A stretch of 63,993 nt of DNA, filler included, from Diploschistes diacapsis (taxonomy: Eukaryota), in assembly GCA_023645945.1 (NCBI GenBank). It is 8 parts of 8 records of this genome, joined end to end, with 100 filler letters (N's around TTAATTAATTAA, not from the genome) between each part and the next. Parts side by side here need not be neighbours in the genome. Positions count along the whole stretch, not along the records: positions 8,182 to 16,252 come from JALAIB010001202.1; 7 more parts are not named here. One strand, 5' to 3'. Below are positions 8,082-56,999 of the stretch, in pieces; the first letter of the stretch is position 1, and the number at the start of each line of letters is the position of its first letter. The translations under genes and the position numbers were made by a program. The notes below the pieces were generated by a model. It was not told the origin of the DNA. It was given only the letters and a program-made list of their open reading frames with translations, and did not search any database.

Positions 8082-8181
8082 NNNNNNNNNNNNNNNNNNN
8101 NNNNNNNNNNNNNNNNNNNNNNNNNTTAATTAATTAANNNNNNNNNNNNNNNNNNNNNNNNNNNNNNNNNNNNNNNNNNNN
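8082..8181. other. Artificial contig spacer (also 16253-16352, 24419-24518, 32582-32681, 40739-40838, 48881-48980, 57020-57119)
   Basis: Identical N44-TTAATTAATTAA-N44 blocks (stops in all six frames) separating contigs of steadily decreasing length. Confidence 0.99.
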
Positions 8182-8736
8182 GACGTTGACGCTACGATGA
8201 GCATTTGAGGCTGCTATGGTGGTCATGATTTACATCCATTTTGTGGTACCTATACCCTTTGGCGATTATTGGCGCGCGTCAACGAGGCATTGCTAGGAGC
8301 CTCTCCGTTTTCTAATTGCATGGCTATTGGCGATGGAGGTCAAAACAATGTGACGGGGACACATAGATTAGTCTCCCCTTCTGATCATCCTGCAATGATG
8401 AAAACCAGAACATTTATCATTACCCTTTGCTGTGCAGTCATCATGAGTGGAAAGTAGTACTGAACCAACCCTCCCTCTGTTCCGCGACCATTGAGACTGG
8501 AATGTGCAAACGATAAGTGAGTATACAGAAAGAACTATGCATACCAATTTCTTCCATACCAGAGACAATCCCACCCACCAACGCCATTGGTTCAGCACCG
8601 CTCGAATGCCTTCAAGCTGCGAACCACCAGATACAGATGCGCTCTCCCCCCCTATGTATTTCCAGCCAATCGAATCAGAAATTCGTCTTCAGAACATAAC
8701 AATAAGCCTTGTCCATCCTTTCCTACCAGCCCTTCT

Positions 8737-10669
8737 TCACCGCGCCGACCTCGCCATAGCCCGCATATTTGCCAACAGCATCTCCGCGCCGAAATCGCCC
8801 CCATCTACCTCCATGCCCCCCACATCCTCGCCCTCATCTGCATCTATATCTCCAACCCCATTCTCATCGCCACCCCTCAAACTCGGATCCAGCACGCTGC
8901 AATCTAGGGTACCCGTGCCGACACTGACCTTGAGCGGCACACGGTGGGCCCCTGGCGTGCTATTGACATCGACGCCGTTCGCAAGGTGCTGCTGGGCCGG
9001 CGTGATATGGACATCGTCGTCGTCTTCTCCCGCTGCGTCCACGCTGTCGCCGTCTGCTTCTCTCCCCCCCTCATCACCGTCTAGTTCCCCGTTCCCGTTT
9101 CCATTCCCACATCCTTCGCCTTCTCTTCGGCCTCCCCTTTCCCTTTCCCTTCCCCTTCCCTCCTCATTCTCAACAACGTCAACCTCCATCTCACCTGTCC
9201 CATCAATAGCAGGAACCCCCAGATCGCCTAAGCCCCCCTCCGGTAGCGCACGCTGATCCTTGCGGTCTCTCTCCACCGCTCCAATCCAGCGTCTAATCAG
9301 CGCCTCTCCATCCAACGGCCACCCTTCTCCCTCTTCCTCCATATCATCATCTTCATCTCCATCTACATCCCCTGGTCCCTCTCCTACCCTGCCCGCATTC
9401 CCCTCTCCCTCTCCCCTTACGGGTCCTTTCCTCCTCCTCTTGCTCCTCCTCGCCGCTCCCTCCATGACCCACCGGCTCGTCTCAACATCCATCTTATGAA
9501 ACGCCGGGATATTGTACGTATATTCCTTCGGCTGCTGGCACGCACTCAATCGTGCAATCTGCAACCTCAACTGCGCAGCCTGGCCCTCTGCATTCGCCAC
9601 CCTCTCACGCAGCTCATCTACCTCTTCCCGTCCGGCGGCTAGCGAGCGCAGCGTCTCGAGGTGCCAGAGCTCGGCCTTTTGGCGATCTGGGGTAGCCGCC
9701 CAAGCGTCCCAGGCTTGGGCAAGGTGGGCGTGGTATTGCACGGGATCGGGCTTGGCGGTCAAGGAGGCGGTGAAGCCGGGTTGTGGGGAAAATAGGTCGT
9801 GAACGTCGGGACGGGAGACGAGCTGAGACTGGGTGCGAGCGAAGGCGGCAAGGCGGGAGGTCAGAAGGATTTGGAGGTGGGTATAGTGCGGTTTGGTAGG
9901 GAAGGAGATGGGACAGTGGGCCGGGGACGAGAGCGGTTGCGCGGAGGCGATGGTCGGTTGGGGTGGGAGAAGGCGCAGGACGAGCGCAGGGAAGGTGAGG
10001 GAAAGGAAATCGAAGGGGAAGGGGGAGGGTGGATGAGCTTGGGCACTGGCGAGATGTTAGTTGGGAGGGGGGTGGTTGGTGAACGCGACAGAAGAGCGTC
10101 TAATTTGGTGCGTACCTGGCGGCGTTAACGGAGTCGAGAACCTCCTGTAGAGCGAGCTCGGCGGCGCGCAGGCGCGTCCGGTCTTCCAGCATTCGCTTTT
10201 TCATCGTGGCGTCGCTTCTACTTCCTTGCTTTCTCGAGCCCGGATCTTGTCGCAGCCCGGCGGATGGGATATCCGTCATGACGCCCGTAGCTTCCCATGT
10301 CGGCTTGTTGATCCAATAGCGCTTGTTTTCGTCCGTGCCCACCACGAAGCTGTACGGCGAATCCGCCGTTCTAGGAGGACAGAATTCGTTGCTCACGGGC
10401 GTCGAGGGATCCGTCCCCTGCCTGCTCCTCCTTGGCTGTCTGCGCGTGATGTTGGACCTGAGCAGACGGATCTTATCGACATCGTGCACGCCGTCCGTGG
10501 CTTTGGGATTTTTGACTTTTATGTACAGATCGAGATGACGTCCCAACGAAGAAGAAGTAAATTGGTCACCGCAAAAGGGACAAGGCTTGTTCTTGGGAGC
10601 GCCCGATTTTGCAAGCGTCGCAGGGACGTCGGGCGAGGCTTTGCTGGGTGCTGGACTGGGCTCTGACAT
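8737..10669 (-). CDS. Conserved fungal hypothetical protein with N-terminal CxxC/His zinc-finger-like motif and coiled coil; intron 10115-10046
   Basis: KPCPFCGDQFTSSSLGRHLDLYIK in exon 1; GTACGC...CTAAC...CCAG intron joins in frame to FDFLSLTFPALVLRLLPP and ORF 8737-9762. Confidence 0.75.
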
Positions 10670-10813
10670 TGCTTCGCAGACGCGATCTCGTATGCTCGGT
10701 GTTGTGAAAAGGGCATTGAGTGTTATGCACAAATTATGGTTGCTTAGGCCGTAATGCACGGGCCGTTAGCACCCAGCCGAAGGGTTATCACTTCAAGTAG
10801 TCCGAAGTATTTA

Positions 10814-11313
10814 CTTTAGTAGTCCATTTTCTGCCTTATGTATTTACCACCAAAATTTGTATGTGAGATACATGATGACCACCATAGTAACTACCTACTG
10901 CCATATGTTTTGATGCATGTTTTGATGCCTTCTTTAATGCCTCGAAGTATGTTATGCTGCATGTTTTGATGCTTCTTGAAGCAGGTTCTGCTGCATTTTT
11001 TAAGGCCTCTCGAAGTATGTTTTGCTCTATGTTTGGCTGCGTGTTTTAAATGCCTCTCGAAGTATATTTGGCTGTAGGTTTGGCTACCTCTCGAAGCATG
11101 TTTTGCGGCACGTTTTGCGGCACGTTTTGATGCCTCTCGAGGTATGTTTTGATGTATGGTTTGGGCCTTTCGAAGCGTGTTTTGCCACTATGTTTTGATG
11201 CCTTTCGAAGCATGTTTTCCCTCAAAAAATGGGTGGTTACCAAGTATCTTATATACAAATTTTGGTGGTAGGTACATGAGGCAAAAAGTAGGGCAGAAAC
11301 TGGACTACTGAAG
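10814..11313. mobile_element. MITE with ~70-bp imperfect TIRs and an internal minisatellite, TA-flanked (Tc1/mariner-like)
   Basis: Left CTTTAGTAGTCCATTTTCTGCC-TTATGTATTTACCACCAAAATTTGTATGTGAGATAC matches the reverse complement of the right end CTTCAGTAGTCCAGTTTCTGCC-(12 nt)-TCATGTACCTACCACCAAAATTTGTATATAAGATAC; TA on both sides; interior of ATGTTTTGATGCCTCTCGAAG-type repeats. Confidence 0.75.
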
Positions 11314-11436
11314 TAATTAACCCTACTTTTAAATGCTTGTAATTATAACGGGTTAAAGTTTTATTATTCTTATATACTTGTAAACCCTCTGTCCAGCTTG
11401 ATACGTATACTAAATCACTATTAACATTGTATTTCT

Positions 11437-11952
11437 TGGGCTGGATGGAGTGAAGCGGGTACACGCGGGTACGGTCCCAAAACAACTACATTTACGAGTT
11501 GAGTGTGGAATTTCAGCAGACTACACTCGTAAGTGTAGTGTAGTGTGCTGATATATATAGCTACTGTGCTACACTCAGGAGTGTGAGTGTGCTAGAATTT
11601 GCACATTACACTCTGCGGGTACTCGCGCGTGGAGTGAGTGTGCGAGAAGTGTAGTGTGGAAGCGAGTGTGGAGGCATGTTTTTCTGCTTATGTGACTGCT
11701 TTTAATAATGCACGGTGCTGCTTTTGATGCTTCATGGTGCTGCTTATTTAACTGCTTTTAATTTTTTGCTGCATTTTCCACTGCTTCCATTGCTTCCACT
11801 GCCACTGCTGCTTCCAATGCTGCTTCTGCTTTCACCACAGTGCCCATCAGAAAAACCATCAGAATAGGCATTTAGCGTCTGAATTAACGCCAGCACACTC
11901 ACTCGCACATTACACTACCCGTACACTCATTCCACCCGCGGGTACCAGCCTA
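11437..11952. mobile_element. Non-autonomous hAT-type MITE
   Basis: Exact 8-bp direct repeat GTATTTCT at 11429-11436 and 11953-11960; short TIRs TGGGCTGG / CCAGCCTA; many subterminal GTGTAGTGT/ACACTC and CGCGGGTA motifs. Confidence 0.8.
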
Positions 11953-12367
11953 GTATTTCTCTGGGCGTTCAGCTCGCGCTTGTGGTGAAGCAACAACTTC
12001 AAGTTACCTCCTTTGGCAAGCCTGAATTGCTCTACAATTTTATACTACAACTCCTCTCCATCGTTAGAAATGATGCTAATGTCAAGTTCATTGAAATCAA
12101 TAAACTTGTCACCAATCTCCTGTAAATACTGCCCATAAGCCGAGAAACTTATTTTCACCGTCTTCTCAAGTCCATGTTGTACCTATATTGTTACTCTTCC
12201 TATGGTCGATAGAACGATCTTCCTCTTGTGTTAGGATGAGAATGGGCCCCTGTCGACATCCGTTTGAGATTGATTCTTCTTTGCTTCTCCTTTACTGGTG
12301 GCTCGACCGCTCGGAGGCCCCGTAAGGGGAGTCAAGGCCTCTAGGTGGTCGTGCGCTTATTCCTCCG

Positions 12368-14108
12368 TTATGGCAGGAATAGAAGTAGAGTTGGGAGATT
12401 TTGAGTCTCCGCATCATGTGGCTTCAATAACTGAAATGGGTCAAAATTTGAGCCCTGAAGGTGCGGTCTAAAGTATGGTTTGCTTAATCTGGTTATTCCA
12501 ACCATTACGGCATTATAGGTAACATACTGTATATTTGGATTCTGAGGCGCTGTCTGCTGGTTACCGCAGTTTCTGCAGCGAAGTTTTTTGACGACATAAA
12601 TACCGGTTGTTCTGTGCCACCTTAGGTCGTACATAGTCTCTATTAAGCTCTCTGCATGTTTTGCAAAAGACTTCAATGTGAGGCGGCATACGAGGATTCC
12701 TAACGATCTGTTGAGAAATTCGTGTATCATTTGATATTTTGGGACCTGAGTTTGGATCAGTACCAGAACGCGAGGAAATGGAGCTATAGGTCTATTGCTA
12801 ACCTGTCTTGCTCCCTGGTATGGGTTGGGTTAGTACTTCTACTAGTGGCGTTCCTTGCTCCTGGGGATGTGTTGTAGGATTCTCTCTAAATGCGCTAGCA
12901 TTTGTCACTTCAGAATTACAAGATGTCCTTGGCTCCTGTGAACATAAAAGTTGCCTAACTGGCGGTGGCTGATCGCTGAGCAGAAAAGAATTATTATCAC
13001 CTTTCGATAGGATCCTCTTCGCTGCTCTCCTTGCATTCCAAGAACCCGGCCGGTATAAGATTCCAGTTCCTCCTGGCGCCTGCATTAAAGAGGGATCTAG
13101 ACCTTTAGCAGCCATAACTGATGTGAGAGCATTTCGAGCTAGTGTTTGCTGGCGTGGGTAATGACTAAGCTTCGGAAATCGATTGATGAAAGACCAATGC
13201 AACTCTTGATAGAATCCATCCTTGTACGTTAGTCCGGCGAGTTGATGAGCAATAACCATTAGACGGTTCTGCCGACTCGCATACTTTTGTCCCCAAGGAA
13301 AAAAAAAGACCTGTGGATGCATAGCAAATATCACAAAGCGGATGAATTTGCCATGGACTCCTAGGTTATCTGATGCCCATTCTAGATATATTGAAATATC
13401 GCTGTGATTATCCCATAAGCAAAGCCGCTCAAGGTTGCATATTTTCAGCATTCTTTGCTGAATAGCTCTGTCTAAAGGATCTCAACTTTTGCTTCCATAT
13501 TCTTTCGTATCTTAAACAACCAGTCTTCGTGGCAGGCCAATATATTTACCGGATAGTCAACCAAGCCATCTGTAATTTCACGTCGCGCGAGATGGTCGAA
13601 GATCAATGTTTTTCCGTTGACAAACGTGTTGGCCATGATTAACGCGATACAAGGAGTTGTCGGATCAGCAGTCTCCCCATGATATGGATACTGAGTGACG
13701 AAGCTAGGATTGTGTAAATGATGTGCAATTGGCCAATTAAAGTCTCCGGATGGGGGAACAAGCTCATCTTTCGCCGCGGTGGGCTCTAGAGATGGGATTC
13801 CATCTTCTGAAATCGAGCAAATTTTTGCAATTGAATGCAGCTTGTTTTGATTTGGATTGCCTTGAATCGGCATAGGAAAGGCTAGATCCGTAATAAATTG
13901 GAAATTCACCTTGATCTAAGGTAAGTCAAGCCTCTAAATCACGAAAGTGTGATTCAAGTTCTCTCAGCCGTGCAAGGGAATTCTCGCTTAGGCAGTCCTT
14001 GGGCTCATCTAACCAAAGATTGCCAAAAAGTCGGTACTTGGCGCCAGACAACTGAGTACCATCGATAGCTTCATTGGTTTCTACTGTTTGTGGGACAGAC
14101 TGGACCAT
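12368..14108 (-). pseudogene. Fragmented accessory gene, possibly a UDG-like fold with a C-terminal Zn ribbon
   Basis: Four colinear minus-strand ORFs separated by stops or frameshifts; motifs HLHNP, IFDHLARRE, MEAKVEIL, FVIFAMHPQ, CRNCG. Confidence 0.45.
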
Positions 14109-14701
14109 GTTATATATGGTGGCTCTTGCTCAAAGCGATAGACTCGCTGAACCGGGAGGGGGGGTCGTGTTATTCTGAGAAGAGAATATAAGACTAAATG
14201 TAGGTAAGTGTTGGAGCAAGCACGAGATGTAAGATGCCTTGTGGGTAGAAGATATAGGGCTGGCAGGCCGTCAGGCTAGGCCCGATAGGCCGCCATGCCA
14301 GACACTCCCAATGGGGGGATGATGCATTCCAACAGTAAGCGTCAAGAGGAAAGCTTCCTGGGTGAGAAAACGGCTTGCTTATAGATTAGTCAGAACACGG
14401 ATCAAAAAAGGGGGTTACCTACAATAAGAAATAATTCAATTTGAAGGTCTATCTGGATGGGATAAGAATTCGATTATACTATGTTCTGCCGCTTTACTAG
14501 AACCAACCTCTTTAGTATTGTAAACACTAGACTGCATTGGTTGGTTCTCGGCTAACACAAACAAGTATAGAGAGTATCCGTTAGAGAAAGAATTGAAAAC
14601 TCGATAAAAAAGAGCGCGGATCGAACATCAGCGTTCTAAAGAAAGAACCAATAACAGTTTTTAGTATTTATATCTTGATTAAGTAATATAGATCAAATAT
14701 T

Positions 14702-14839
14702 GGTCGGTTAGCTCAGTTGGTTAGAGCGTGGTAAGAACTATTGCGAATGCTAGTTTCGCCTCTGACACTAACTCATCCAGGTGCTAATACTTCCTGTTAT
14801 GTTACGCCAAGGTCATGGGTTCGACCCCCATACTGACCA
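14702..14839 (+). tRNA. tRNA-Ile (anticodon AAT at 14786-14788) with two interruptions: 50-nt GT-AG insert 14731-14780 (positions 28/29) and canonical 14-nt intron 14790-14803 (37/38)
   Basis: After removing both inserts: acceptor GGTCGGT/ACTGACC, D arm GCTC-AGTTGGTTA-GAGC, anticodon arm TGGTG-CTAATAA-CGCCA, variable loop AGGTC, T arm ATGGG-TTCGACC-CCCAT, discriminator A; intact A and B boxes. Confidence 0.93.
14731..14780 (+). other. Candidate spliceosomal (U2-type) intron within the tRNA-Ile anticodon stem
   Basis: 5' site G|GTAAGA, branch site ACTAAC at 14767-14772 (also CTGAC at 14762-14766), 3' site CCAG|GT; precise removal restores the 5-bp anticodon stem. Confidence 0.8.
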
Positions 14840-14846
14840 TATAATA

Positions 14847-14854
14847 TTTTTTTT
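14847..14854 (+). terminator. RNA polymerase III oligo-T terminator
   Basis: T8 run starting 8 nt after the tRNA discriminator base. Confidence 0.8.
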
Positions 14855-16895
14855 GGAATCTAATGCTTTTGCAAATCGTAGGAATAGATAATGGCCGACT
14901 ATCGGCTAAGGATAATATATAGTACTCACTTAAAGTCATGTATCCCAAATACAGAAGAAATAAATTAGTTTTGCTAGTCAGTTGAAGGAGAATATGTTAT
15001 GAACGCATATTGCTAAAATTGCAACAGTTCTGCAACGGATGTTTCTACTCGGCGGAGAATTTGACAACTTCTATCCAAATAATTGTTCTCCATGAAAACA
15101 TTAGCCCCTGGCATTTAAATTGCCTTAGCTTAACATATAAGATAGCCACTGCACTCCGGCAATGTCTCGTTCGCAACAGAGAATAGACCGACATACACAA
15201 GACGAATTCGCGTACGTTGGTATAGAGTGAGTATATTATCTGCCTTCTTTATCAGTAAGCGATATGCACAGCAAACCAGTGTTACATTATCTCGTCTCGC
15301 TGCCTTTTGATTGTATTTTTCACATTCTCGAGATAGTTTGAATGTGAACAGGAGTTTTGCCAGATCGAGTGTATTAAGTCTAATCTAATGCGCCAGTTCC
15401 GTTTTGAAATATAATTCCACCGTAGTATCTTCGCTTCTCATTGGAATTTGGGTTCTCCGCTCCAAAGGTGTGATATTCGTACCTCTAGGGACGGCTTGTC
15501 TATCTAGAATCTTGTGTCTATTATAATGATAATTGGAAGCGATCTACCTCTACAGACAATGAAGAAACTGCAACTTCGAAATTTGGAGATATTACAAACT
15601 TGATAGAACGCCCCTACAGGAATAGGTGCTACATTACCGGGGGCTGAGCCTGATCCGGAAGGATTACGTGTAACTGGGCATCATCTGTAGGCTGAATGGT
15701 TCAGATTCGAAAAGGTGCAGAACTAACTAGGTGGGAAGTAGCGAGGTATAAATACTTCCCTAGGTCAGCTCTACAAACCTTTGAACCCACAAACGTTCAG
15801 AATGTTCCAATATGCGAGTAATAAAAAGATATAATAAATAAATGAATCTTGTTCTTCATATAATAAATAATAAAATAAATAAATCAGTCTTGTTCTTTAC
15901 ATAATAAATAATAAAATCGGATTGAATATAGTTTTTATAACCGTCCGCGATTAATAAACGTTAACGACCCGTTGTAACAGCGAGGGTTAGTGCCTAATAG
16001 GTAGCAACTATCCTACTGAGCCAAAAGATTGAATATAATGCTTTTAAGAACCCCGAAGCACTGTTTCCCTATTATAACGTGTTTCACGGGGATTCCGGCC
16101 ACCCCCAGTGTAATACGCAGAACCCAATAAGGGCTACTAGGGGGTATGCCAAGCATATACCAAGGCCCGCTAGCGTGTTCTTATATAAGAACAGAGTTTT
16201 CGCAGATAGAAATAGTTTTTTAGAAATTATTTTATTAATATATCTATCGTTTNNNNNNNNNNNNNNNNNNNNNNNNNNNNNNNNNNNNNNNNNNNNTTAA
16301 TTAATTAANNNNNNNNNNNNNNNNNNNNNNNNNNNNNNNNNNNNNNNNNNNNGTGGAGGGCTTGGAGAGGGTCGAGCGATGGAGGTAGGGAGGGGAAGGG
16401 GAGGAAGGATGTTTGAGATTGGAGGAGCGTGGGAGCGAGGGACATGAGTGCATTTGTCGAGATTATATGTACAGGGCGGATTGGGGATTAAAGCGGAGGG
16501 AGAGCGCTGTCAATGGGGGCATCTTTACTTCGTGGTTTTAGATACATGGCGAGGCCGTGCCTCGGCGTCGCTACTTGGTATAGCCAATCGAGAAGTATTT
16601 ACGTAGAACAGAGCACTTGTCTCTTGCAGAGAAAACATAGCGCGAAGGGACAGTAAGCGCCACAGGTTGAAGAAACCCCTGATCCATCGTGATCAAGCTT
16701 GCAATGTAAGCCACGGTTTGCAATGCCAGCGTAAGGAGCCCTTATCCACAGAAGCCTGCCTGCGTGAACGGCGCTGCAGCTCAAGAAAAAGCCAAGGGCT
16801 GGAAGCTGGCCTAAGTATGCTTGGGTATGAGCCCGGGATATCTTCGCAGAATCAAGACAAGGAAAGCTAGTGAATCGCGCCGTGTGAAAATGAAG

Positions 16896-22534: not shown

Positions 22535-25500
22535 AACGAGATGCATTCTCTTCTGTATACATACGCAACGACATAGGCTGTGCCTTTGGTGTATGTCGCT
22601 TGTGGTTTCTCAAACTTAACAATGTATATTGAGAGCATGATTGTAGACTGATAAAGTAAAGCTCGCAATACTCAATGCCTAGCTCAGGGGGAAGGGGAAG
22701 ATACTCTGGAACTTATCTCTAATGAATCAGTCCTCCCATTGCTATAAAAAGAAAGTGTAGGTATGCTATTTGTCCCACGTACAAAACATTGGAAAGGAAT
22801 AAAGCTTAGCTAATCCCACGTAAATTTGCTCCAAGCGTCTGGTCAGATTAATATTCGATTAATGAAATTATTTACTTTCGCTAATCGGTGATTGCATAAA
22901 TATTGAATAAATAATCGATCCGATTAATTGCCGGTTAATCGTATATTAATCTATTAATGATTAACGCTCTCGTTAATTACGTGACCGATATCGATACTCG
23001 CCTGGATTTGCTTGATTTTGTGCAATCCTACTGCAAGAGAGTTTCTGTCGAAGGGAAATCCTCAATTCTGGCCTATGGGCTACCCTACTCCTCATGTCTC
23101 TACCTGAACTGCACTTGTTTCTCAATCACGCCGTCATTCCGATGTACAAGCATCGTTTGGCGATGGCAGTATCATTGACTCCGCCAGCAATTTGATATTC
23201 CTTGATCCCTCACCGCACACATGGTGGGAACATGCATTATGGGTGTTTGAGCCAGTTTGAAAGCTTCAAGATGGTGTGCGATTGCGGGTTTGGTGGCTAC
23301 CTAGCGCAGCCCTATCGATAGAAGCCACCGGACTCCAACCTGCTATGGATTCCCGGAAGGTGTGGAAGTCACACCCGGAACAGATTGGCATTGCTCATAT
23401 ACAAACTATTGGCCTATTTTGACTGGCGAGATTACCGAGATCAAAAGCCACGGACCCAACCACAATCATTGAGTGGGATTTACTGTCCCTGCAATGGATC
23501 TGTGCCGCTTTCCAGCTTTGTCTGGAGCTGCACAGGTTAAAGACGAGGATGAAGAGAAAGGCGAACGGTATGAAAGAGAAGAGGAAGAAGATGATAATGA
23601 CGACGAAGATGGTAACCAGCGACAACTTAGCACGCGCCCAGCTGCTCCTACCATGCAAGATCTTATAGAGTAGAATACTTTAATGATAGAAACCTCAGGA
23701 GCGCTTCTCGTTGGTATCGACGGTAGGGCACGAAACTTCAGCATAAACGCAGCCTCTGTCTCAGGTACTCACGATGTCCTGATTGTCCACAACGAAGGGA
23801 GTCATTTTTGGAGTGCCCGCCATCCAATCGTATGGCTAGAAACAGCTGCAATAGGTCCGCAAGTCTAGCGTGCAGATTGATGGTATTGGGAGTTAATCAG
23901 ATTCACGAGATGGGTTTGTCCAGATGCCCACATTTCGCTACTTGTAGGAATTATAGTTGCCACCATCATCACCCTTCTAATCTACATATTCTACAAACTT
24001 TGCATTGCGCCTCGATAAGCATGCCATGCATCTGAGGCAGTGAGCGGCACTTGGCTTTCGTGTGTTGATCCATCGATAGTGTAAGCTTTGAGTTCGGGTT
24101 GATGCCATGATTAATCATCTGGCTAGTAGTTTAAGTCGAAGCTGCATAAACGGCCTGTTTTTCTGCTGGATGGCGAATTCGGTTCTCGGTCTTCGCTCCA
24201 CGGAGATCCCAATCAATCAAACAGAGAGCTAATTCGCATTCCCAGATGCTTGTCAAGTAGACGTATATTTCCTCCTCAAATACCTCATACATTCCCGCAA
24301 TATTGCTCAATCCCCCCATCGACCAATCCAGCCCTGCTCGTCCTTCCGCACCGTATATCCTCATTAGCCCCCAATCAAAGGCACACACCCCCACCCATAC
24401 CCCGCAAAAAACCATGTCNNNNNNNNNNNNNNNNNNNNNNNNNNNNNNNNNNNNNNNNNNNNTTAATTAATTAANNNNNNNNNNNNNNNNNNNNNNNNNN
24501 NNNNNNNNNNNNNNNNNNCCCCTGGGGCCCCCTCCAGCGCTCATGCTCCTTTATCGCGCTTCATTCATACGAACTCCCCTCCTCCTCCTCAAGCTGCAGG
24601 CATGCCCACCAAAGACTCCCACCAAAGACTCCCCCTGCTTCCGCATCAGGATTGACCAGCCTTCTAGAAAACGAAGGAATGTACTACTACACACCCAGTC
24701 AACCATCAGCTATCACGAAAAGAAAAAAAAAACCTGCAAATCCAATCATTACCCTGCCATATCGCCAAATAATCAGCTTCCTGCAGCGGGGCGGCTTTTG
24801 ACGTGTTCGCCCATCCCCAGACCCGCAACCAATGCGAATCATTCCTTCATTTATTATTCACTCACTCATTCATTCGTTCGTTCATTCGTTCATTCGGTCC
24901 CCTCCCTCTATGCAAAGAGAACTCGACGGGGCACGGCAAGTTCCATCATTTCCCTTGTTCGTCGCGGCAACGGTATCTCGCACTCCGGTGCATTCCGCAT
25001 ACGACTTTACTTACCTTACTTACGCCTATCTACTTCGAAGCATTGCCGCCTGGCTTTGCCGCAGCAGCTCGCCGACTGAAAAAGCGGATGCAGAATAATC
25101 TTGTTTTTTATTTTACTGTGAGCTTACGACCGTAGATTGGTGGTTGGTCCATCTGAGTTATCTCATCGCTGGGTAGTATGAGTATGGTCTTCGGCAAGTC
25201 GGCTAATCTAATCCCTTGTCTCGCTTATCCGTCGATGTGTGTGCGCGAGAAAATCAGGGGCTTTGCTCTTTGACCGCCCGCTTCAAAGGGGTTGTTTTCA
25301 AAACCCCTTTGCTTTGATGCTACAGTGCGCGCTTCCTCGTAGCTGCCAGTTGACTTTATCCGCGAGCGGAAACTCTAGCTCCTTCAGGGAAAAAAATTGT
25401 GGAGTAAAAACGGGACCCGTTGGCGGTAGCCCATGGGATTTTTGCTAGAGGGTATCGAAAAAATATCGGGGCGCACACGGCGTCTTGCCACCCGCCGCCA

Positions 25501-40300: not shown

Positions 40301-40838
40301 GGAGATAATTAACGCGTAAACTTGACCAGCTGGAGAAAAGATCATGCGGATAAGGACAAGGACCGCACCAATAAATGAAAGGCTACAGAGAAATTTGAAT
40401 TCGAAAGAAAAGGCAATATATGGCTGAACAGAAATCAGACGCTCAAAGGCGAAAAGCCTTTTCCCAAGAGGGTGGCTGAAAGACGCACAGCCTCTTTTTA
40501 AGTTGGGGAATTGTATGCGAACGAAAAAGCCCAGGCGAAAAAAGGGCATTGGACAGAAAATCAACAGCTTGAAGATGGGATAGGAACTTGTAATTAAAAA
40601 GTTCTAACTATCTTATAATATAATTATGAATTAGAGTTGCCGACCACCAAATGAGACGTATTACCATATAAGACGCTTTTCGTATGTTACTCGTATTTAA
40701 TGCGTAACCACATCGCAATAATAGTTTTATTTTTAATANNNNNNNNNNNNNNNNNNNNNNNNNNNNNNNNNNNNNNNNNNNNTTAATTAATTAANNNNNN
40801 NNNNNNNNNNNNNNNNNNNNNNNNNNNNNNNNNNNNNN

Positions 40839-42270
40839 GCTCAATCCACAGCCCCACCATCTCCCCATCCACGGCCTTCAGCTCGCCCATCGCCGGCGCC
40901 GCCCTCACCGCCTCCTCGATCCCCAAAGGCAACCCCATTCCCCCCTTCCCCTTTTTCCTAACCAGCACCTCCTCCAAGAAATCAACCAGCCTCAGAGCCG
41001 CATTCTTTTTCGCCTCCGCCACGTCCACCGTCCACCCGCTGCTCTGCCGCAGCACCCGCATCCACTCCTCCGGCCGCACGATCTCCAGCCCGCCCATCCG
41101 TGCCGCGACCGCGGGCAGGATGTCGCGCCACGGCGTCTTGTGCGGGTTTACGACGTGATAGACAGGCGGAGATATCTCGCCCCTGCTCCAGTCGCCGGGC
41201 GGATAGAGGGCGGCAGCGTGCTTGGCCAGCTGGACGACGATCTGGGCGACCGCGCCGACGGGCACCCAGTCAATGCCCGGCGTGCCGGCCAGGTGTATGT
41301 CCGGCAGTTTACCGAGGATCTTGGAGGAGGCGAGGATGCGCGGGAACCATTCCGAGCGTGGCCACATGCCCTGTTTCGTGGTCGGGCCTGCGATCTGCCC
41401 GACGCGGCAGATGGCCGAGGGGATGCCGGCGAGCCGGGCGGCGGTGTCGAGGACGCGCTCGGCGAGGTGCTTGGAACGGGCATAGCCGGATTGTTGGGGA
41501 ATTCTAGGGTCGTGGAAAATTTGTTCGGGGATGGCGGCGAGGTTGTCCTTTTTTTGGGAAGGGGAGGGTTGGAAGCGCATGGCGGCGCCGATGCTGGAGA
41601 TGAAGAATATTAGGGGGGAGTAGGTGGAGCGCGAGGAGAAGTCGGTTAGGCGGGTGACGCCTTGCAGGTGTAGGGAGGCCATTTGGGCGAGGGGTTGGTT
41701 GAAGTCGACGGCCCAGGCGTTGTGGATGATTAGGGTGACAGCGCGGAGGAGGGTGAGGTATTGCAATGAGCTGAGGCCGAGGTACGGTTTGGAAAGGTCG
41801 CCTTGTAGGAATGTGGTGTTCTTCAATGCAAACTCCTGAGAGAGACCACGCTCTGCCATTGTCCTGCGCTGGCGTCTTTCGCTGTCTGGGCTTCTGTTGA
41901 AGCAGTAGATCGTGTCTATGCCCTCATCACGCAAGAGCCAATCGAGCATGTAGTTGCCGAGTGAGCCCGTAGAGCCTGTGATAAGGACGGTGTGTCGATC
42001 CGGAGTTCGTTGCGACGGCGGTCTGCCGCTCAGTGGGAGCTCGGCGACATTGGCTTCATATATGCGTTGCATTTCCATCAAAGAATCGCTGTCACTCGGC
42101 GATCTGTCGAGTGAGGCAGGGGTATGAGGCGACATGCTTAGATCTTCATACGAAACTGTCTGGGTACAATGGACCTCCGGTCTACCCATTTGTGCAGGCA
42201 ATGCTTCGCTATGCTTTGCAAGTATCAACACCTGTAATGAATCGAGGCAAAGCTCGAGCAGGTTTGTCAA
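40839..42270 (-). CDS. NRPS-like fragment: degenerate carrier (T) domain plus terminal thioester reductase (R) domain; 3' end cut by the contig break
   Basis: LLELCLDSLQV (LGxDSL-like), TVLITGSTGSLG, LQGDLSKPYLGL, IIHNAWAVDFN, FFISSI, GYARSKHLAE, ICRVGQIAG, DWVPV. Confidence 0.75.
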
Positions 42271-42993: not shown

Positions 42994-45123
42994 TCACAAT
43001 CTCACCCCACCGGCCCTAATCCTCTCCCAATCACTCACCTCATAGCGCTCATACGTCCCATTCTTCAACCAGTAAAGCCTATCCTCCTGCGCGACCTTTT
43101 GCGGATCCACGCCCTGTACTCTCAACCCCTGCTTCTGCTGCTTGTTATTTCCCGTCGCCTCCAGCTCCCGCATCACCCTGAGGAAAAGTGGTACAGCAAA
43201 CTTTGGTAGTCCCCTCTGCGCATGCGCCGCTATATCCCGCATCAGCTCTGCATTCGGCTCTACGCCGCCGTGGATGGTAATGGCCGCGCATCCGGCCCGC
43301 CCATCGTGATGCGGCAGCTCCACGCCATAGACGTTCGCCTCTGAGATGGCTGGATGTAGGCCCAGCACCTCCGACACTTCCGAAGTAGACACGTTCTCGG
43401 ACCGCCAGCGGAAGGTGTCGCCGATGCGGTCGACGAAGTAGGCGCGCCCCTCGCTATCTATGCGCACAGTATCGCCGGTGCGGAACCATGCGTCGCCCTG
43501 CTTGAACACGTCTCTTAGAATTTTTGATGACGAGGCCTTCTGGTTGCCGTGATAGCCCAGGTAGTTAGCTTCCACATGCTTAGGGTCGATCCGGTAGAGC
43601 AGCTCGCCCGGTGCATTCGTCTCTACGAGCGTGCAGTAGTAGTTGTTGGCCGGATCCCGGGCCGGGGCATCGGTTTCCCAGTCCAGCTTAACGATGGCTA
43701 GCCCTCTGCCCATTATGGTAGACATCATCCGCACAAGAGGACCGCCGCGGCCGATGGCACCGGAGCTGTAACCGTTGCGCGATAGATTCCACAGTGCACC
43801 AGGGCCTTCGGTGGCAGAGTAGAACTCGGCAATGGTCTCGATGCCGAAGCGCTCGCGGAAACGCTCCCAGACGTCGGGGCGCAGGCCGTTGCCAAAGGCG
43901 GATCGCACGCGGTTTTCCTTGTCGATATTGGCGCCGGTTGCGGGATCGATTTGCGGCGGGGCTGCTAGTAGATAGCGGCAGGTTTCGCCGACGTATTGGA
44001 TTATGGTCGCCCCCGACGAGCGCACATCGGGCCAGAAGGTCTTAGTTGAGAAGCGGTGGCCGACGGCGAGGGTGTAGCCGAGTACAAGGGAGGGTATGAA
44101 GGCCATGAGGGTGGCTGTGCCGTGATAGATGGGCATGCACTAAGACGAGCCGTCAGTATGGATCTAGGGAGGTATTGCCCGCTTGAGCTACCTACCGTAT
44201 AATATATATCCTCTTTCTTAACTCCCAGCCACCTCGAATTGAAGGACGCGGCAGCATATGCTTTCGACCAGCTAACTAATGGGTCGTCAGCCAGAGTGCG
44301 GTATATGAGCTAAAAGGGACCATTGCTTACCGACTGCAGCCTTCGGCAGCCCTGTGGTTCCGCTTGTGTAGATCAGACACGCCAACTTGTTGCCCTCGTT
44401 CACTCCTTGGGCGTTATATACCCAGTCAGGCTCTCTTACGCCTGGCACTAGGGCAATCTTGCTCTCAAGAGCAAGGTCGACGACGACTGCCTCAACGGAG
44501 CCGTTGCCGCCTTCCCGAAAGTCTCTCGCTGCTAGCGATTCTCTGACTTCGCGCGAAAACTTGTCCGCAACCTCATCATCCACGAAGACTATGCGCGCTG
44601 ATGAGGTCTTGATGCAATGGAGCAACGGTTTGTTGGTAAGATTGTAGTTGATAAGTGCCGGATATGCTCCGATCGCCCAAAGGCCCAACATCATGAAGAT
44701 GAACTTTGGCGAATTCATAAAGTCCAAGGCAACAATCTCCCGCGGCGCTATGGCGTAAGTCTGCTTCAGCCATGTTCCGTGCTTAATCGCAAGATCGTAT
44801 CCTTCCTTGAATGTCCACCTTTGCCCCTCGTATATGAGGAATATCCGGTTCGCATCTTTCTTCGACAGCGCAAGGTCCTCGAGGCGATGGAACCAGCTTG
44901 GCCGGCCTTGTCGATCATAGCGCTTGCACTGGATAGAGAAGGCGACCAAGCTGCTGATGATTTTCAGATCCTGGGTGAAGTTGTATCGCGCATCAAGGTA
45001 GGCGGTCGATGCTAGCGCTGCTGGCGCAGCTATGCTTAAAGGAACTTGTGTTGCGGACGGCGTTAGTGAAGGTAAATAAAGCGGCTGGCATCGGCGACAG
45101 GGGTAGTTGGGCTTACTTTGCAT
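42994..45123 (-). CDS. FAT1: Very-long-chain acyl-CoA synthetase / fatty acid transport protein; introns 45116-45045, ~44330-44276, ~44197-44141
   Basis: LIYTSGTTGLPKAA, MPIYHGT, QYVGETCRYLL, FGNGLRPDVW, EFYSATEG, GDAWFRTGD, FVDRIGDTFRWRSENVSTSEV, HDGRAGCA. Confidence 0.9.
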
Positions 45124-45573
45124 GCTCTTTCGCTAGTACTCGAGGTCGCTGTCTCAACACCAGATGCCTCCTGTTCAAGAATACCAAAGCTACTTCTCGG
45201 CAATGAGGAGTTGAGAGGGGAGCCCATCACTGTATCTTTACTACCAACTCATCTGGAGCCGAGGTTGCAGCGCGGACCGAGGATCAGCTCTGATTGGCAC
45301 ACTTGGACAATGGCCAATGGCTGGGTTGCAGTCGTAAAGCTGCCCGATTTGGCCGGGTCGTGGAATGCATCCTCAGTCTACTTCTCTCAATCCTAGCCTA
45401 CATTGTTCAATGTTAAACTGCGGTTCCTAACTTTTTGGATGCCGGTTATTCTGACCGTTATCTTGGCAGTATGCAAAATTGGGGGTGTACAATATGTAGC
45501 GGAAATTATGTTTACTCTGGCTGGGAAGTATGTAGGTTCTTCAAAATACTGTGGGATCTACATACAAATCTAA

Positions 45574-46124
45574 GGCCCTGTTTGGCGCCACGTAGAGCTG
45601 CTCTACGGTAGAGTGCATCTACGTGGCGCGTTTGGCAGCCAGCCCCACCACGCTGGCGCTTACCATCCTCGGCCTAGTGATTTAACCTCGGCTCAGTAGT
45701 TTAACCTCGGCCCAGCCTTTCAGCCTTCTCAGTCTTTTCTGCGCATGCGTGATGGTCGCAGGCGTAGCATTTATCGTAATACTGGGCTGCGTATAGTTGC
45801 AAGTTGCGCAACATCAGCGAGTAAAATAACGGTTATTTTGTTTTTGTTTTCTGTGATATTTAGATTAAAAATCGTCCATTTTAGCCAGATGGAAGAGGGA
45901 AATAGGCGGTGGAAACGGCGGCGATAGGGTTTCGATCCATTTTGAATCATTACGTAGAGTGCTGTGAGAGCTCTCGAGCTCTCACAGCACTCTACGAAGA
46001 TTTTGGTGGTCATAGAGCGCGTAGACGCTCTACGGCGTTTGGTGGGAGCGTAGAGGTCATGTGACCTCGTACAATCTACGTAGAGGCTCTACACATGCTC
46101 TACGCTGACCACCAAAACAGGGCC
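45574..46124. mobile_element. PIF/Harbinger (Tourist-like) MITE, full length
   Basis: TIRs GGCCCTGTTTGG...CCAAAACAGGGCC; TAA duplicated at 45571-45573 and 46125-46127; subterminal CGTAGAG/CTCTACG repeats; no transposase. Confidence 0.88.
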
Positions 46125-46373
46125 TAAGTAACTCTGTATTGTCGAGGCTTAGCGTCTGTAATCTAAATAACCGCTGCCCTATTTACGCCTTGCTGCTGCG
46201 ATATAGTAGACGTGTAGCCCCTATTCTGCTGCAACGAGATACTGACTATGATTGGTCATCAGGCGCCTCCAAGCAGACTTTGCACGGAGGCTTTCACCTG
46301 CGCATTGCATTCACTTTTTTTATTGGAAGCTAATACAACATCGGATGGAACTATGACAAACAATACCTCGTCT

Positions 46374-48130
46374 TTACAGCTTGGCTTTCGGAGCCTTCTT
46401 TGCCTCCTCCTCCACCGCTTTCTTCAGCACTCTTCTCAAGATCTTCCCGCTCGCGCTCTTGGGTATCTCATCAACGAATTGGACGCCACCTCTTAAGCGC
46501 TTGTGGGATGCTACGCGCTCCGCAAGCCAGCTTGTAATATCGTCGATAGTCTGCTTGTTCCCCTCCACCCCCATTGTGGGAACTACGAAGGCCCTCGGAA
46601 CTTCGGTGGCCTGTTCTTCAGAATAAATTCCCACAACGGCAACGTCATTTACTTTGGGATGCCCCTGCAAGAGGCCTTCTAGCTCTGCCGGAGGAACTTG
46701 GAAGCCCTTGTACTTGATAAGCTCCTTCACGCGATCAGTGATGTAGAAATTTCCCTCCTCATCTTGGTACCCGACATCGCCAGTCTTGAAATAACCGTCT
46801 GGAGTAAGGGCATTCTTAGTGCCCTCCGGATTGTTGAGATAACCCTGAAAGACATTTGGTCCTTTGATCCAGAGCTCACCCACTTGGCCAATTGGAACCT
46901 CTTTCTCGTCTTCAGACATATATTTGGCGGTTTGGTTGGGAAGCATCTGCCCGACACTCCCAATAGTTGATTTCCAAAGGTCCCAAGGCTGCGTATGTGT
47001 CGTTGGAGAGGTCTCACTAAGACCGTAGCCTTGTTTGACTCGTATATTGATACGAGCATAAAGCGCATCGACAAGTTCTCTTGTCAGCGGTGCAGCACCA
47101 GAGTTCATCATTCTGATACTGCTCAAGTCGTACTTGGATACTGCGGGATGTTTGGCTAATTGAAGGACGACTGGCGGTACCACGTACGCGAACGTAATGC
47201 GGTGTTGCTGGATGGTTTGGCAGAAAGTCTCGATATCGTATTTTGGCATAACAACCAAGGTCCAGCCAACCATGACGCACTGGTGAAGCAAGCAGGTTAG
47301 ACCATAAATATGAAAGAATGGGAGGAATCCAATAATGCGATCTCCCTTGCCGTCAGCATTGCCGTTCCAGCTCAAGTTCTGTCCCTCCCCCGTCATGATT
47401 TGATAGATGTTCGCCACAATGTTGCCATGCGATAACATAACGCCCTTTGGCAGGCCAGTAGTTCCGGAGGAATAGGCTAAGAAAGCTAGATCTGATGGTT
47501 TGCGCTTTGTTCTCCTGTAGCGATTTGTGCCTGCCATATTCCTGATTGAAGTGAAATGCTTGACCTTTCCAGTCTCGTCGCGCTCCTCGCCAATAAGAAT
47601 AACCATATCTTCCGGTATGCCTGCTGCTTTGGCCGCCTTCAGAGCAGTTCCAAGAAGAGCCTTTTGTGTGACAATGGCCTTTGCGCTAGCATCCTTCAGT
47701 TGGAATATGAGTTCCTCTGCGTTATACCCTACAGGACTGTGAGCGCGGCTGTATTAGAGAGGGTAAAGCTCCATACCTGGATTAGCGGCGGTAACGATGC
47801 CTCCAGCCCAGTGGCATCCCCATATTATTGGTGGAGTATCAATGCTGTTGGGGGTGAACAGAGCCAAGACATCATCTTTCTTCCATTCCCAGACCGATTT
47901 GAGACCATGGGCGAACGAGATAGCCGCGGCCTTGACCTGAGCAAATGTGTAGGATCTGCCAGTGAAGGCGTCCACATATAGAACTTGGCTTCGGTCAGCT
48001 TCATGTGCAACTGATGACGCATCCTCCCACCTTTATCATCCGGATATGGCCTGTCCTTTCTGTCCAGTAAGCTGGCCCAAATATCCGTTTCTGGTATGTC
48101 AATTCTAGGATAGAGAGATTCTGTAGGCAT
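46374..48130 (-). CDS. 4-coumarate-CoA-ligase-like / phenylacetyl-CoA ligase with peroxisomal PTS1; introns 48030-47984 and ~47776-47729
   Basis: YSSGTTGLPKGV, LPFFHIYGL, SGAAPL, QGYGLSETSP, GELWIKGPNVFQGY, FKTGD, DRVKELIKYKGFQV, IPKSASGKILRR; ends in AKL*. Confidence 0.9.
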
Positions 48131-54006: not shown

Positions 54007-56999
54007 ATGCGTCGCGAAGACTACACGGTGGGATGGATCTGCGTGGCGCAGACGGAATATGTGGCTGCCTGCGAGCTGCTAGACGAAGAGCACCCTTCAT
54101 TACCCACCAGCTCCGTTCACGACGACAACGCCTACACCCTCGGGCGCATTGGTGATCACCACATCGTCATCGCATGCCTTCCGAAAGGGAGGTACGGCAT
54201 CGCCTCCGCTGCCAGCGTGGCCAAAGACATGCTACGCAGCTTCGAGTCCATCCGAATCGGATTAATGGTCGGCATCGGAGGAGGGGCACCCAGCGATAAA
54301 CATGATATCAGACTCGGCGATGTCGTGGTCGGTTGTCCGGTTAAGAAGGAGGGTGGTGTGGTCCCGTACAATTTTGGCAAGGCGATTCAAGATCAGGAAT
54401 TCGAGCGAACCGGGTTTTTGAACTCGCCGCCAACGGTCCTCTTGACGGCGTTAAATAAACTGAGTGTACACCATGAAAGGAAGGGTAGTCGTATTGCTGA
54501 GTCGGTCCAAATGATGATTACCCAAAATCCAAGATTACGAAAGAAATACCAACATCCGGGCGCGGGGTATGACAAGCTATACGACTCAAGTTATAATCAT
54601 CGTGGCAGTGATCACAGGTGCGATATCGAATGTGATAGCGCATCTCCGCCGGTGCTTCTACGACCGCGGCGTGAGCTGGACCCGGATGAACCGGTGGTGC
54701 ACTACGGCCTTATTGCATCAGCGGACCAGCTGATGAAAGATGCGATTGCCCGTGACCGGATAACCAAAGAACATGATGTCCTATGCTTTGAGATGGAAGC
54801 GGCAGGGCTAATGAATGATTTCCCCTGCGTTGTGATTCGAGGCATTTGCGATTACTCGGACTCGCACAAAAACGACATGTGGCAAGGGTACGCGGCGGTC
54901 ACGGCGGCGTCGTATGCCAAGGAACTTCTTAGGATGATTCCAGAACATGAGATTGCCGACACACAAAAGGCGACTGCAGAGATGGGTGAGTAAATTATAG
55001 ATATTTACTACATTGGCCTTGGAAGGAGCAGGTCAGATATTGATATCTTTTCTTTTACTATAAGGGAAAGAGCTTGACGGGAACTGCAAAACTGCTTTCT
55101 TCATAGTCACCAGATAGATGCTAGATCACAAAAGATGTGTAACGCTAATCCTTTCCATGATGGCTTTAGTTAAACCTCTCTTCTCCGTACCGTATGAAAG
55201 AGATGTCAACTTCATTGATCGAAAAGATATCTTTGTTCAGATCGAAGAGCAGCTTCGTATGCATCACCGCGCCTCGTTATGTGGAATCGGGGGGGTCGGG
55301 TATGCTTTCTCCTTCGCGAACTCTCATAGGGGCTGACGGAGGTGTCAGGAAATCTCAGATCGCCATCGAATACGCTTACCGGTTTCGGCAGTCTCGACCG
55401 CAGAGTCATGTCTTCTGGGTGTACGCAGCCAGTTCGGGTACATTCCTGCAGGCCTGCCACGACATTGCACGGAGCCTGAAACTTCCTACATGTGACGACC
55501 CAAAGACCGATCCATGTGAATTGGTCTCCAAATGGCTCAAGGAGGAGGGTCATAGTTGGCTGATGATTTTGGATAATGCGGATAATGCAGAGCTCTTTTT
55601 CTCCTCAACTGAATCGGATGCCCTACCTGCTACCCTTATGCAAACCCAAAGTTCTTTGAACGACTACCTTCCAAGTGTATTAAGTTCTCAGAAATCGTTG
55701 CTCGTGACGACAAGAAGCAGACCTCTAGGTGAGGATCTTGCCCATGGAGAACTGTGTGTGGGGGTGCATCGCTTTTCATTGCAAGAGGCGAAAGACTTAT
55801 TACAGTTGAAGATGAAGGGGCTTAAGACTTCTTTCGAGGTGTACATTACAGAAAGGCTACTGGACATTCTGGGATATATCCCACTAGCCATCACCCAGGC
55901 CGCGGCTTTTATTAAACGCAATCGAATGTCTATCAAAGGCTATTTAGCCGCCCTCGAAAAAGATAATCAGAACCTGACGGATTATCTGAGCCAGGATCTT
56001 CAAGACCCTCGGAGGCCGAGGGGTTTTCCCAATTCCGTCTTCCGAACATGGAAGTTATCCTTTGACCAGATCCTGACACAGGAACCCCAGACGGCAAAGC
56101 TATTATCCTTTATAGCGATGCTTAATCCACAGAGGATTCCGGAGAATCTGTTGCAACCGCTGGCTGAAAGAGATGTAGATTTCAGAATGGCACTAGGTAC
56201 GCTTGACGGGTTCGCCTTAATTACTCAAGAAAGTGGAAGAGAGACATATACAATACACCCACTCGTACAAGCATCGGTGCATTACTGGCTCGAACAAAGA
56301 AGTGAAAAAGCAGATTATGCCAGCCGAGCTTTGCAGCTATTAGCAAAGGAGTTCCCGAATGGTGAGCATGAGCATAAAGAAAGATGTGAATCATTGCTGG
56401 CGCATGCTCAAGCGGTATTATGCTATAATTATATATCAGAAGATGATCTCGGACACCGCGGAGCCCTTCTTTATAATATTGGATGGTTTAATGTGCAGCA
56501 AGGCAGATATATTGCTGCGTATCAAGAAGTCTCCGAAGCATACAAAATCAATCGAGAACAATTAGGGGAGGATGCGACTACCACATTAAACAGTCTGTCT
56601 TTGCTTGCATTGGTGCTTCGGTACCAGGGAAAGTATGAGGCGGCCGAGGAGATGAACCGACGAGCGCTGGAAGGGTATGAGAAGGTGCTGGGAGTGGAGC
56701 ATCCCGACACATTAGTTAGCGTCAGTAATCTAACATCGGTGCTTAAGTACCAGAGGAAGTATAAAACGGCCGAAGAAATGAACCGACGAGCGCTGGAAGG
56801 GAGAAAGAAGGTACTAAAATTAAAACATCCCGATATATTAATTAATCTCAATAATTTAACATTAGTGCTTAAATATCAAAAAAAATATGAAATAGCCGAA
56901 AAGATGAACCGACGAGCGCTAGAAGGGAGAAAAAAGGTACTAAAAGTAGAATATCCTTCGATATTAATTAACGTGGGTAATCTAATATTAGTACTTTAA
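54007..56999 (+). CDS. Fungal NLR-like protein: PNP_UDP_1 effector + NB-ARC + TPR repeats; introns 54986-55169 and 55300-55348; TPR array degenerating
   Basis: YTVGWIC, DDNAYTLGRIG, GLMVGIGGG, DIRLGDVVV, CFEMEAAG, IRGICDYSDSHKN; Walker A GIGGVGKS across intron 2; WLMILDNAD, LVTTR, IPLAITQAA; QGKYEAAEEMNRRALEG repeats. Confidence 0.92.

Follow-up and report, generated by a model that had tools for sequence, protein, structure and literature searches.

A candidate spliceosomal-type intron in the anticodon stem of a tRNA-Ile(AAU) gene from a lichen genome assembly

Architecture of the tRNA-Ile(AAU) gene

The transfer RNA (tRNA) gene described here lies in a stretch of DNA of 63,993 nucleotides (nt), hereafter the window, which joins eight parts of the Diploschistes diacapsis assembly GCA_023645945.1; the part that holds the gene (8182-16252) comes from JALAIB010001202.1. 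All coordinates are those of the window. The gene occupies 14702-14839 on the plus strand and encodes a tRNA-Ile(AAU) that is interrupted twice, by a 50-nt insert with GT-AG borders in the anticodon stem and by a 14-nt intron in the anticodon loop. The Rfam model RF00005 matches 14702-14839 over its full length (model positions 1-71 of 71) with 44.5 bits against a gathering score of 29, and the alignment leaves 75 nt of the anticodon region unaligned. This is the sole Rfam match above threshold in the window, and the Rfam listing to E = 10 contains no further tRNA there.

Exon 1 (14702..14730, plus strand) comprises tRNA positions 1-28, that is, the 5' strand of the acceptor stem, the D arm, position 26 and positions 27-28, which open the anticodon stem, as placed by Rfam and ARAGORN. 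The 50-nt insert (14731..14780, plus strand) follows between positions 28 and 29. It opens with the donor GTAAGA (14731-14736) and closes with the acceptor CAG (14778-14780), and a candidate branch site, ACTAAC, is located at 14767..14772 (plus strand); its branch A, 14771, is followed by the last 9 nt of the insert. Exon 2 (14781..14789, plus strand) holds positions 29-37 with the anticodon AAT at 14786-14788. The 14-nt intron (14790..14803, plus strand) is placed by ARAGORN, as is exon 2, and sits between positions 37 and 38, where it is of the type cut by the tRNA splicing endonuclease. Exon 3 (14804..14839, plus strand) carries positions 38-73 according to both programs. It supplies the anticodon stem with its 3' strand, runs through the variable loop and the T arm, and ends with the 3' half of the acceptor stem and the discriminator A.

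The transcription signals were read directly from the DNA. The A box (14709-14720) and the B box (14815-14825), both on the plus strand, are as expected for a tRNA gene. A run of eight T residues, a terminator of the RNA polymerase III (Pol III) type, is found at 14847..14854 (plus strand), 8 nt after the discriminator base, and no T run of four or more occurs within the gene itself (14702-14839). The AT-rich leader contains a run of five T residues at 14658 and a TATA-like stretch, TATTTATAT, at 14665..14673 (plus strand), 29-37 nt upstream of tRNA position 1, which may serve to position TFIIIB.

The output of ARAGORN depends on its settings. With default settings, ARAGORN reports no tRNA gene in the window; with its intron option, it forces the intact locus into a tRNA-Asn(gtt) with a 61-nt intron. 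Once 14731-14780 is deleted, ARAGORN -i calls a perfect tRNA-Ile(aat) with the 14-nt intron after position 37, i(40,14). All stems are paired in this call, and the anticodon stem consists of five standard or wobble pairs. An earlier description of the locus made from the DNA alone (the sequence-only reading) had listed the cloverleaf, the A and B boxes, the T8 run and the insert with its signals, each of which is present at the coordinates given there, and had held that excision at the GT-AG borders restores the anticodon stem, as the ARAGORN call confirms. ARAGORN behaves as that reading expected of tRNA finders, overlooking or misnaming the locus, but Infernal with Rfam does find the tRNA.

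Intron signals of the 50-nt insert

The start of the insert, GTAAGA, matches the GTRNG class of donors, and its acceptor is of the YAG type. A second CTRAC motif within the insert, CTGAC, lies just upstream of ACTAAC, with its A at 14765 and 15 nt after this alternative branch A. The rarity of the combination was estimated with a filter for 50-mers that demands a GTRNG start, a CTRAY motif 5-25 nt from the end and a final YAG. Only one of the 125,800 50-mers on both strands of the window passes this filter, and it is the insert itself. Over lengths of 45-60 nt, 38 of about 2.05 million segments pass. The borders of the insert can slide by -1 to +2 nt, with GGT repeated at both ends, and the GT-AG signals are obtained at one placement only.

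For comparison, candidate messenger RNA (mRNA) introns of the window were collected as GT..AG segments of 35-150 nt with GTRNG, CTRAY and YAG, the excision of which fuses two open frames, each 60 codons or longer. The screen returned 14 candidates, eight of which are 48-55 nt long. Their donors are GTAAG, GTATG, GTGAG or GTACG, and their branch A lies mostly 9-14 nt from the 3' end. The insert matches these local introns in every feature compared, namely length (50 nt), donor, branch motif, branch distance (9 nt) and YAG acceptor. Its length had previously been likened to that of mRNA introns at 17303, 21623 and 28662; the introns at 17303 and 28662 were recovered by this screen, but the one at 21623 was not.

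Comparison with endonuclease-cut introns and mobile elements

The position typical of endonuclease-cut introns, 37/38, is occupied by the 14-nt intron, whereas the 50-nt insert lies at 28/29. Endonuclease-cut introns outside 37/38 depend on a bulge-helix-bulge (BHB) motif, according to PMC4090602, and the same text describes BHB introns in the anticodon stem and the D arm of tRNA genes in archaea, Cyanidioschyzon merolae and nucleomorphs, with up to three introns in a gene. The insert could accordingly be pictured as a non-canonical tRNA intron of this class, cut by the tRNA splicing endonuclease through a BHB, and the known occurrence of several such introns in one gene, in just these arms, would fit that picture. 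However, scoring of every allowed border placement at three GT-AG inserts (the present one and two in a second locus, L001, described below) revealed no BHB motif at any of them. Pairing at the borders amounts to 6-7 of 10 possible pairs, the same as the median over 2000 shuffled versions of the insert, and the minimum free energy fold shows no BHB motif at the insert borders either. Moreover, nothing about a BHB intron would call for GTRNG, a CTRAY motif 9-11 nt from the end, YAG and the size of a local mRNA intron, yet three of three inserts combine these features (with a reservation on one donor, given below). The insert thus differs from the archaeal, C. merolae and nucleomorph introns in having no BHB, in its spliceosomal signals and in its fungal host, and we regard this explanation as very improbable.

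The insert alone folds weakly, at -5.1 kcal/mol. A stable hairpin of the kind found in introner-like elements was considered and rejected on this value. No second copy of the insert is present in the 64-kb window, where the longest other match is 11 nt, and no meaningful direct or inverted repeats surround the locus.

The locus in sequencing runs and in a diverged relative

Logan contigs of four DNA sequencing runs, X1-X4, were compared with the window. A contig of X1 spans 13400-14920 without a single difference, and its depth is flat, at 118.1, over the insert and its flanks, indicating that extra copies of the insert are not piled onto this locus. A contig of X2 (depth 98) also contains the insert; by its end distances, it extends from about 14701 to 14807 or further. 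The X3 contig ends at 14815 and X4 provides one 32-nt contig over 14701-14731, both of which are uninformative on the insert.

Within the gene, the differences listed between X2 and the window are T>C at 14742, G>A at 14745 and T>C at 14754, each in the interior of the 50-nt insert; the exons, both splice sites, the branch region and the 14-nt intron have none in this listing. The upstream flank is far less similar: over the 192 nt of X2 record 12 (14535-14726), there are 20 substitutions plus 14 gap letters, a divergence of about 10%. The X2 comparison thus indicates that the tRNA is more conserved than its surroundings and that the insert has been kept in a clearly diverged relative.

These contigs also bear on whether the insert is an assembly artefact or chimera, or else arrived in the gene as one copy of a multi-copy mobile element, introner-like or miniature. 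The window does come from a metagenome-type sample, and introner-like elements are known in some fungi. However, the insert is spanned by Logan contigs of two runs from different studies, which counters the misassembly raised in the sequence-only reading, and both the flat X1 depth and the 11-nt limit on other matches in the window speak against a mobile copy. In addition, no contig of X1-X4 that joins 14730 to 14781, as an intronless copy would, appears in the filtered listing, which amounts to a failure to find one. An artefact or a mobile element is, in our view, very improbable as the source of the insert.

A second interrupted tRNA-Ile(AAU) gene

Metagenome contigs were scanned for a tRNA-Ile(AAU) with any 34-64-nt GT..AG insert at the 28/29 site. 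The scan for tRNA halves split in this manner, an idea already present in the earlier description, yielded a second tRNA-Ile(AAU) case at a single locus, L001, on a 1150-nt contig. As controls, prokaryote contigs (596 billion bases) yielded one match to this pattern and viral contigs none. The prokaryote match (L002, 3001-3069, on a contig labelled as a gammaproteobacterial metagenome-assembled genome) is not a tRNA; it was rejected as a chance match within a coding region, devoid of tRNA features, and serves as a negative control.

The L001 gene is located on the minus strand and contains three interruptions. Its first exon (1105-1096) is followed by a 49-nt insert (insert 1, 1095-1047) between positions 10 and 11, in the D stem and the A box, with the donor GTAATC, the branch motif CTGAC with 10 nt after the branch A, and a CAG acceptor. 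A 19-nt exon (1046-1028) separates it from a second GT-AG insert of 54 nt (insert 2, 1027-974), which has the donor GTACGT, the branch motif CTAAT with 11 nt after the branch A, and again CAG. Insert 2 occupies 28/29, the same site as in the window. The remaining parts are an exon (973-965), a canonical intron of 17 nt (964-948), the last exon (947-912) and a T6 run (910-905) within 10 nt of the discriminator base. Insert 1 splits the A box, and its last bases together with exon 2 rebuild an A-box-like sequence. In the intact L001, no tRNA is found by ARAGORN, nor by Rfam to E = 10; without the two GT-AG inserts, ARAGORN reports a tRNA-Ile(aat) with the 17-nt intron. The flanks of L001 are unrelated to those of the window gene, and L001 holds no long open reading frame (ORF).

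Comparison of the two mature tRNAs showed differences at 7 of 74 positions, all of them in stems. Every pair is kept and no unpaired position differs. Three pairs are changed on both sides in a compensatory manner (6:67 from G-C to U-A, 50:64 from U-A to C-G and 52:62 from G-C to A-U), and one further pair changes from A-U to G-U. Differences that are confined to stems and keep the pairs indicate that both genes retained the tRNA fold while diverging, a pattern of selection for a working tRNA that is unlike the decay of a pseudogene.

This pattern bears on another explanation, in which the gene is a dead or dying, dispensable copy of tRNA-Ile(AAU) into which an mRNA-type intron, or a copy of one, was inserted. 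The intron might, for example, have entered the abundant tRNA transcript by reverse splicing, with reverse transcription and recombination as the later steps; the gene copy would not be productively spliced, or its product would go unused. Such a fate would be in keeping with the AT-rich, repeat-bearing intergenic region around the locus. It would also agree with PMC4090602, in which insertions outside 37/38 in eukaryotic tRNA genes are usually taken as pseudogenes among many synonymous copies. However, the exons are flawless in both loci, with changes in stems alone, all pairs kept and three compensatory doubles. L001 would require two intron insertions in one dead 74-nt gene without any decay of the exons. 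In X2, the exons are without change among the differences listed, against about 10% in the flank and 3 of 50 positions in the insert, and the terminator, the A box and the B box have all been kept. A dead copy is therefore unlikely.

L001 also bears on the polymerase. The 50-nt insert could be a functional spliceosomal intron in a precursor made by RNA polymerase II (Pol II), in which case a long non-coding transcript would be spliced co-transcriptionally and the tRNA released from it by RNase P and RNase Z. As a rule, spliceosomal splicing accompanies transcription by Pol II, and in L001 a Pol III start set by the A box would lie in insert 1, so that exon 1 would be lost. The features of the genes themselves point away from this arrangement. 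Both have a T run no more than 10 nt past the discriminator base (T8 in the window, T6 in L001), A-box-like and B-box sequences, and AT-rich or TATA-like upstream DNA, and the window gene lies between ORFs, at least 790 nt from the nearest. That none of the three GT-AG inserts and neither canonical intron contains a run of four or more T residues is a weak argument in the same direction, because such a run occurs in only 2 of the 14 candidate mRNA introns. For the same reason, avoidance of T runs was discarded as an uninformative signature of Pol III. We consider a Pol II precursor improbable.

Proposed processing of the precursor

Taken together, the match of the insert to local mRNA introns, the absence of a BHB motif and of a repeat, the X1 and X2 contigs and the compensatory changes of L001 support the cautious proposal of the sequence-only reading, namely a candidate spliceosomal intron in a tRNA gene, possibly removed by the spliceosome from a Pol III transcript. 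This proposal stands at the DNA level, with all of the tests that were run in its favour, and L001 clearly strengthens it. We think it likely, though well short of certain, that the insert is a real spliceosomal-type intron in a functional tRNA gene, which would probably be transcribed by Pol III.

The locus would then be a nuclear tRNA-Ile(AAU) gene with two kinds of intron, a U2-type GT-AG intron of 50 nt at 28/29 in the 5' strand of the anticodon stem and the 14-nt intron at 37/38. The gene would be transcribed most likely by Pol III, as suggested by the A and B boxes, the AT-rich upstream DNA and the T8 run. The nuclear spliceosome would recognise GUAAGA, ACUAAC (with A14771) and CAG, take out the 50-nt intron as a lariat and join G28 to G29, thereby restoring the anticodon stem. 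RNase P and RNase Z would trim the ends, after which the tRNA splicing endonuclease and ligase would remove the 14-nt intron. The order with the spliceosome first fits the nuclear location of the spliceosome and the need of the endonuclease for a mature tRNA body (PMC4090602). Removal by the spliceosome is suggested by the signals, as each of the three inserts has a donor, a CTRAY motif whose branch A is followed by 9-11 nt, a CAG acceptor and a length like that of local mRNA introns. Likewise, the two internal boxes, the TATA-like stretch in AT-rich upstream DNA and the T8 and T6 runs suggest a Pol III precursor. The compensatory changes, the two insertions of L001 and the X2 comparison favour the view that the genes are expressed and the inserts precisely removed. 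In this scheme, the window gene would belong to a small class together with the environmental L001, which has an insert at the same site and another in the D stem.

Several points weigh against this interpretation. The class rests on two loci and the contig of one relative. X1 may be the source sample of the window itself and hence not independent, in which case X2 alone counts as independent DNA support. Identity of the exons in X2 is likely from the differences listed but is not proven, and the three X2 changes are too few for their absence from the splice signals to be significant. Regarding L001, the donor of insert 1, GTAATC, lacks the usual G at +5, while the GTACGT of insert 2 fits the class. 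Beyond the signals, the L001 inserts show no similarity to the window insert, the observed scores being reached by 404 and 233 of 1000 shuffles, and the common 28/29 site may reflect either inheritance or parallel gain. This copy of the tRNA could also be dispensable. The assignment to Pol III is drawn from the DNA sequence, and given the split A box of L001, initiation by Pol III ahead of exon 1 cannot be taken for granted there. With exon 1 cut off from the A box by insert 1, initiation positioned by that box alone would take place within insert 1; an upstream TATA element or transcription by Pol II would solve this problem. Finally, Pol III transcripts are generally poor splicing substrates in animal cells.

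We also consider a broader view slightly more likely than not, in which some ascomycetes, possibly of lichen-associated lineages, would depend on the spliceosome for the production of an essential tRNA. Their Pol III tRNA-Ile(AAU) genes would have natural mRNA-type introns in the D and anticodon stems, retained while compensatory changes reshaped the tRNA body, and the spliceosome would act on the precursor before the endonuclease.

Relation to known intron systems

In the textbook division, spliceosomal introns belong to Pol II transcripts, with a few exceptions in small nuclear RNAs (snRNAs) and ribosomal RNAs (rRNAs), and endonuclease-cut introns belong to tRNAs. A 2025 paper on tRNA intron loss likewise treats spliceosomal and tRNA introns as unrelated classes (PMC12530127). 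The kind of intron proposed here, an mRNA-type intron in a stable-RNA gene, is already known, and the tRNA host would be the new element. The literature searched, the coverage of which leaves out most subscription journals, yielded no report of a tRNA gene with a natural spliceosomal intron.

The closest parallel is that of fungal snRNA genes, above all U6 of Schizosaccharomyces pombe, in which mRNA-type introns were reportedly described by Tani and Ohshima in 1989 and 1991 and by Takahashi and colleagues in 1993 and 1996. The S. pombe U6 gene reportedly resembles the present one in having a short GT-AG intron with a branch site in a small structural RNA gene with internal Pol III elements and a T-run terminator. 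Its intron is reportedly removed by the spliceosome, as is proposed for the tRNA-Ile insert. Unlike U6, however, the host RNA here is a tRNA and not a component of the spliceosome, and the usual explanation for U6, reverse splicing at the catalytic centre, is for that reason not directly applicable. A further difference from U6 is that the gene also holds an endonuclease-type intron, so that two splicing systems would act on one precursor.

Spliceosomal introns are also said to occur in rRNA genes, mostly of lichen-forming ascomycetes, as reported by Bhattacharya and colleagues in 2000 (Mol Biol Evol 17:1971). These are again mRNA-type introns in stable-RNA genes outside Pol II, and the run that best matches the window gene's part of the assembly is a lichen metagenome. 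The rRNA genes are transcribed by Pol I, whereas the present gene is a tRNA gene with Pol III signals. No paper was found that extends the spliceosomal introns of lichen rRNA to tRNA. As for artificial systems, an actin intron placed in an engineered yeast tRNA gene was reportedly spliced by the mRNA pathway (Koehrer, Vogel and Domdey in the EMBO J of 1990), which would mean that the spliceosome can accept a Pol III pre-tRNA as substrate. That construct was reportedly artificial, and the present case would be natural and maintained in evolution.

With respect to canonical 37/38 introns, both genes contain one, of 14 nt in the window and of 17 nt in L001. The 50-nt insert differs from this type in lying in a stem, at 28/29, in its GT, branch and AG signals and in having the length of local mRNA introns.

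If the interpretation is correct, tRNA would be the second class of Pol III transcript accepted by the spliceosome after U6, and one that has no role in the spliceosome, which bears on the coupling of splicing to Pol II. The gene would be a naturally occurring case of a single 138-nt precursor handled by two splicing pathways in succession, and it would offer a fresh view of intron gain, with the same site used in two unrelated loci and two gains in one 74-nt gene. Furthermore, a blind spot of tRNA annotation would be exposed, L001 escaping both Rfam (to E = 10) and ARAGORN. With both ARAGORN and Rfam prone to overlook or misname genes of this kind, fungal genomes may contain further, hidden examples, and their tRNA counts may be too low.

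Source and genomic surroundings

The run that matches 8182-16252 best shares 95% of its sampled words and is labelled as a lichen metagenome. X2, which is from an organism coded A, shares 25% of the sampled words of this part, and X3, a rock metagenome, shares 12%. The host of the window appears to be an ascomycete-like fungus from the lichen. By Pfam, the genes of the window are of ordinary fungal type; examples are genes for AMP-binding enzymes and for an NLR-like TPR_10 protein. The introns of the window's genes are short and have CTRAY branch sites.

The tRNA locus is intergenic, the nearest ORF being at least 790 nt away, in surroundings of AT-rich, repeat-bearing DNA. A high-copy dispersed repeat occupies 15600-16252, 0.8 kb 3' of the tRNA gene. 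Over this segment, AT-rich tracts alternate with GC-rich patches, and the summed contig depth in X1-X3 climbs from about 120-170 to 1,000-94,000, with many loose ends and joints. On the minus strand at 12095-12206, there is a sub-threshold Rfam match to the C/D-box small nucleolar RNA (snoRNA) family snR64, with 26.3 bits against a gathering score of 38 and E = 2.3, which may represent a diverged snoRNA gene or chance.

Fourteen blocks of 44 N are arranged in pairs about 8.16 kb apart (8082-8181, 16253-16352, 24419-24518 and onward). They are evidently masked stretches and not biology, and they interrupt ORFs such as those at 16079-16300 and 40783-42270.

Elsewhere in the window, two adjoining genes for AMP-binding (acyl-activating) enzymes with the Pfam domains PF00501 and PF13193 lie at 42994-47606 on the minus strand and look like a tandem pair, with short introns at 44276-44330 and 47729-47776. 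An NLR-like protein with TPR_10/TPR_12 repeats and DUF7779, of a type typical of filamentous ascomycetes, is encoded at 55194-56999 on the plus strand, and its gene has a candidate 49-nt intron at 55300-55348.

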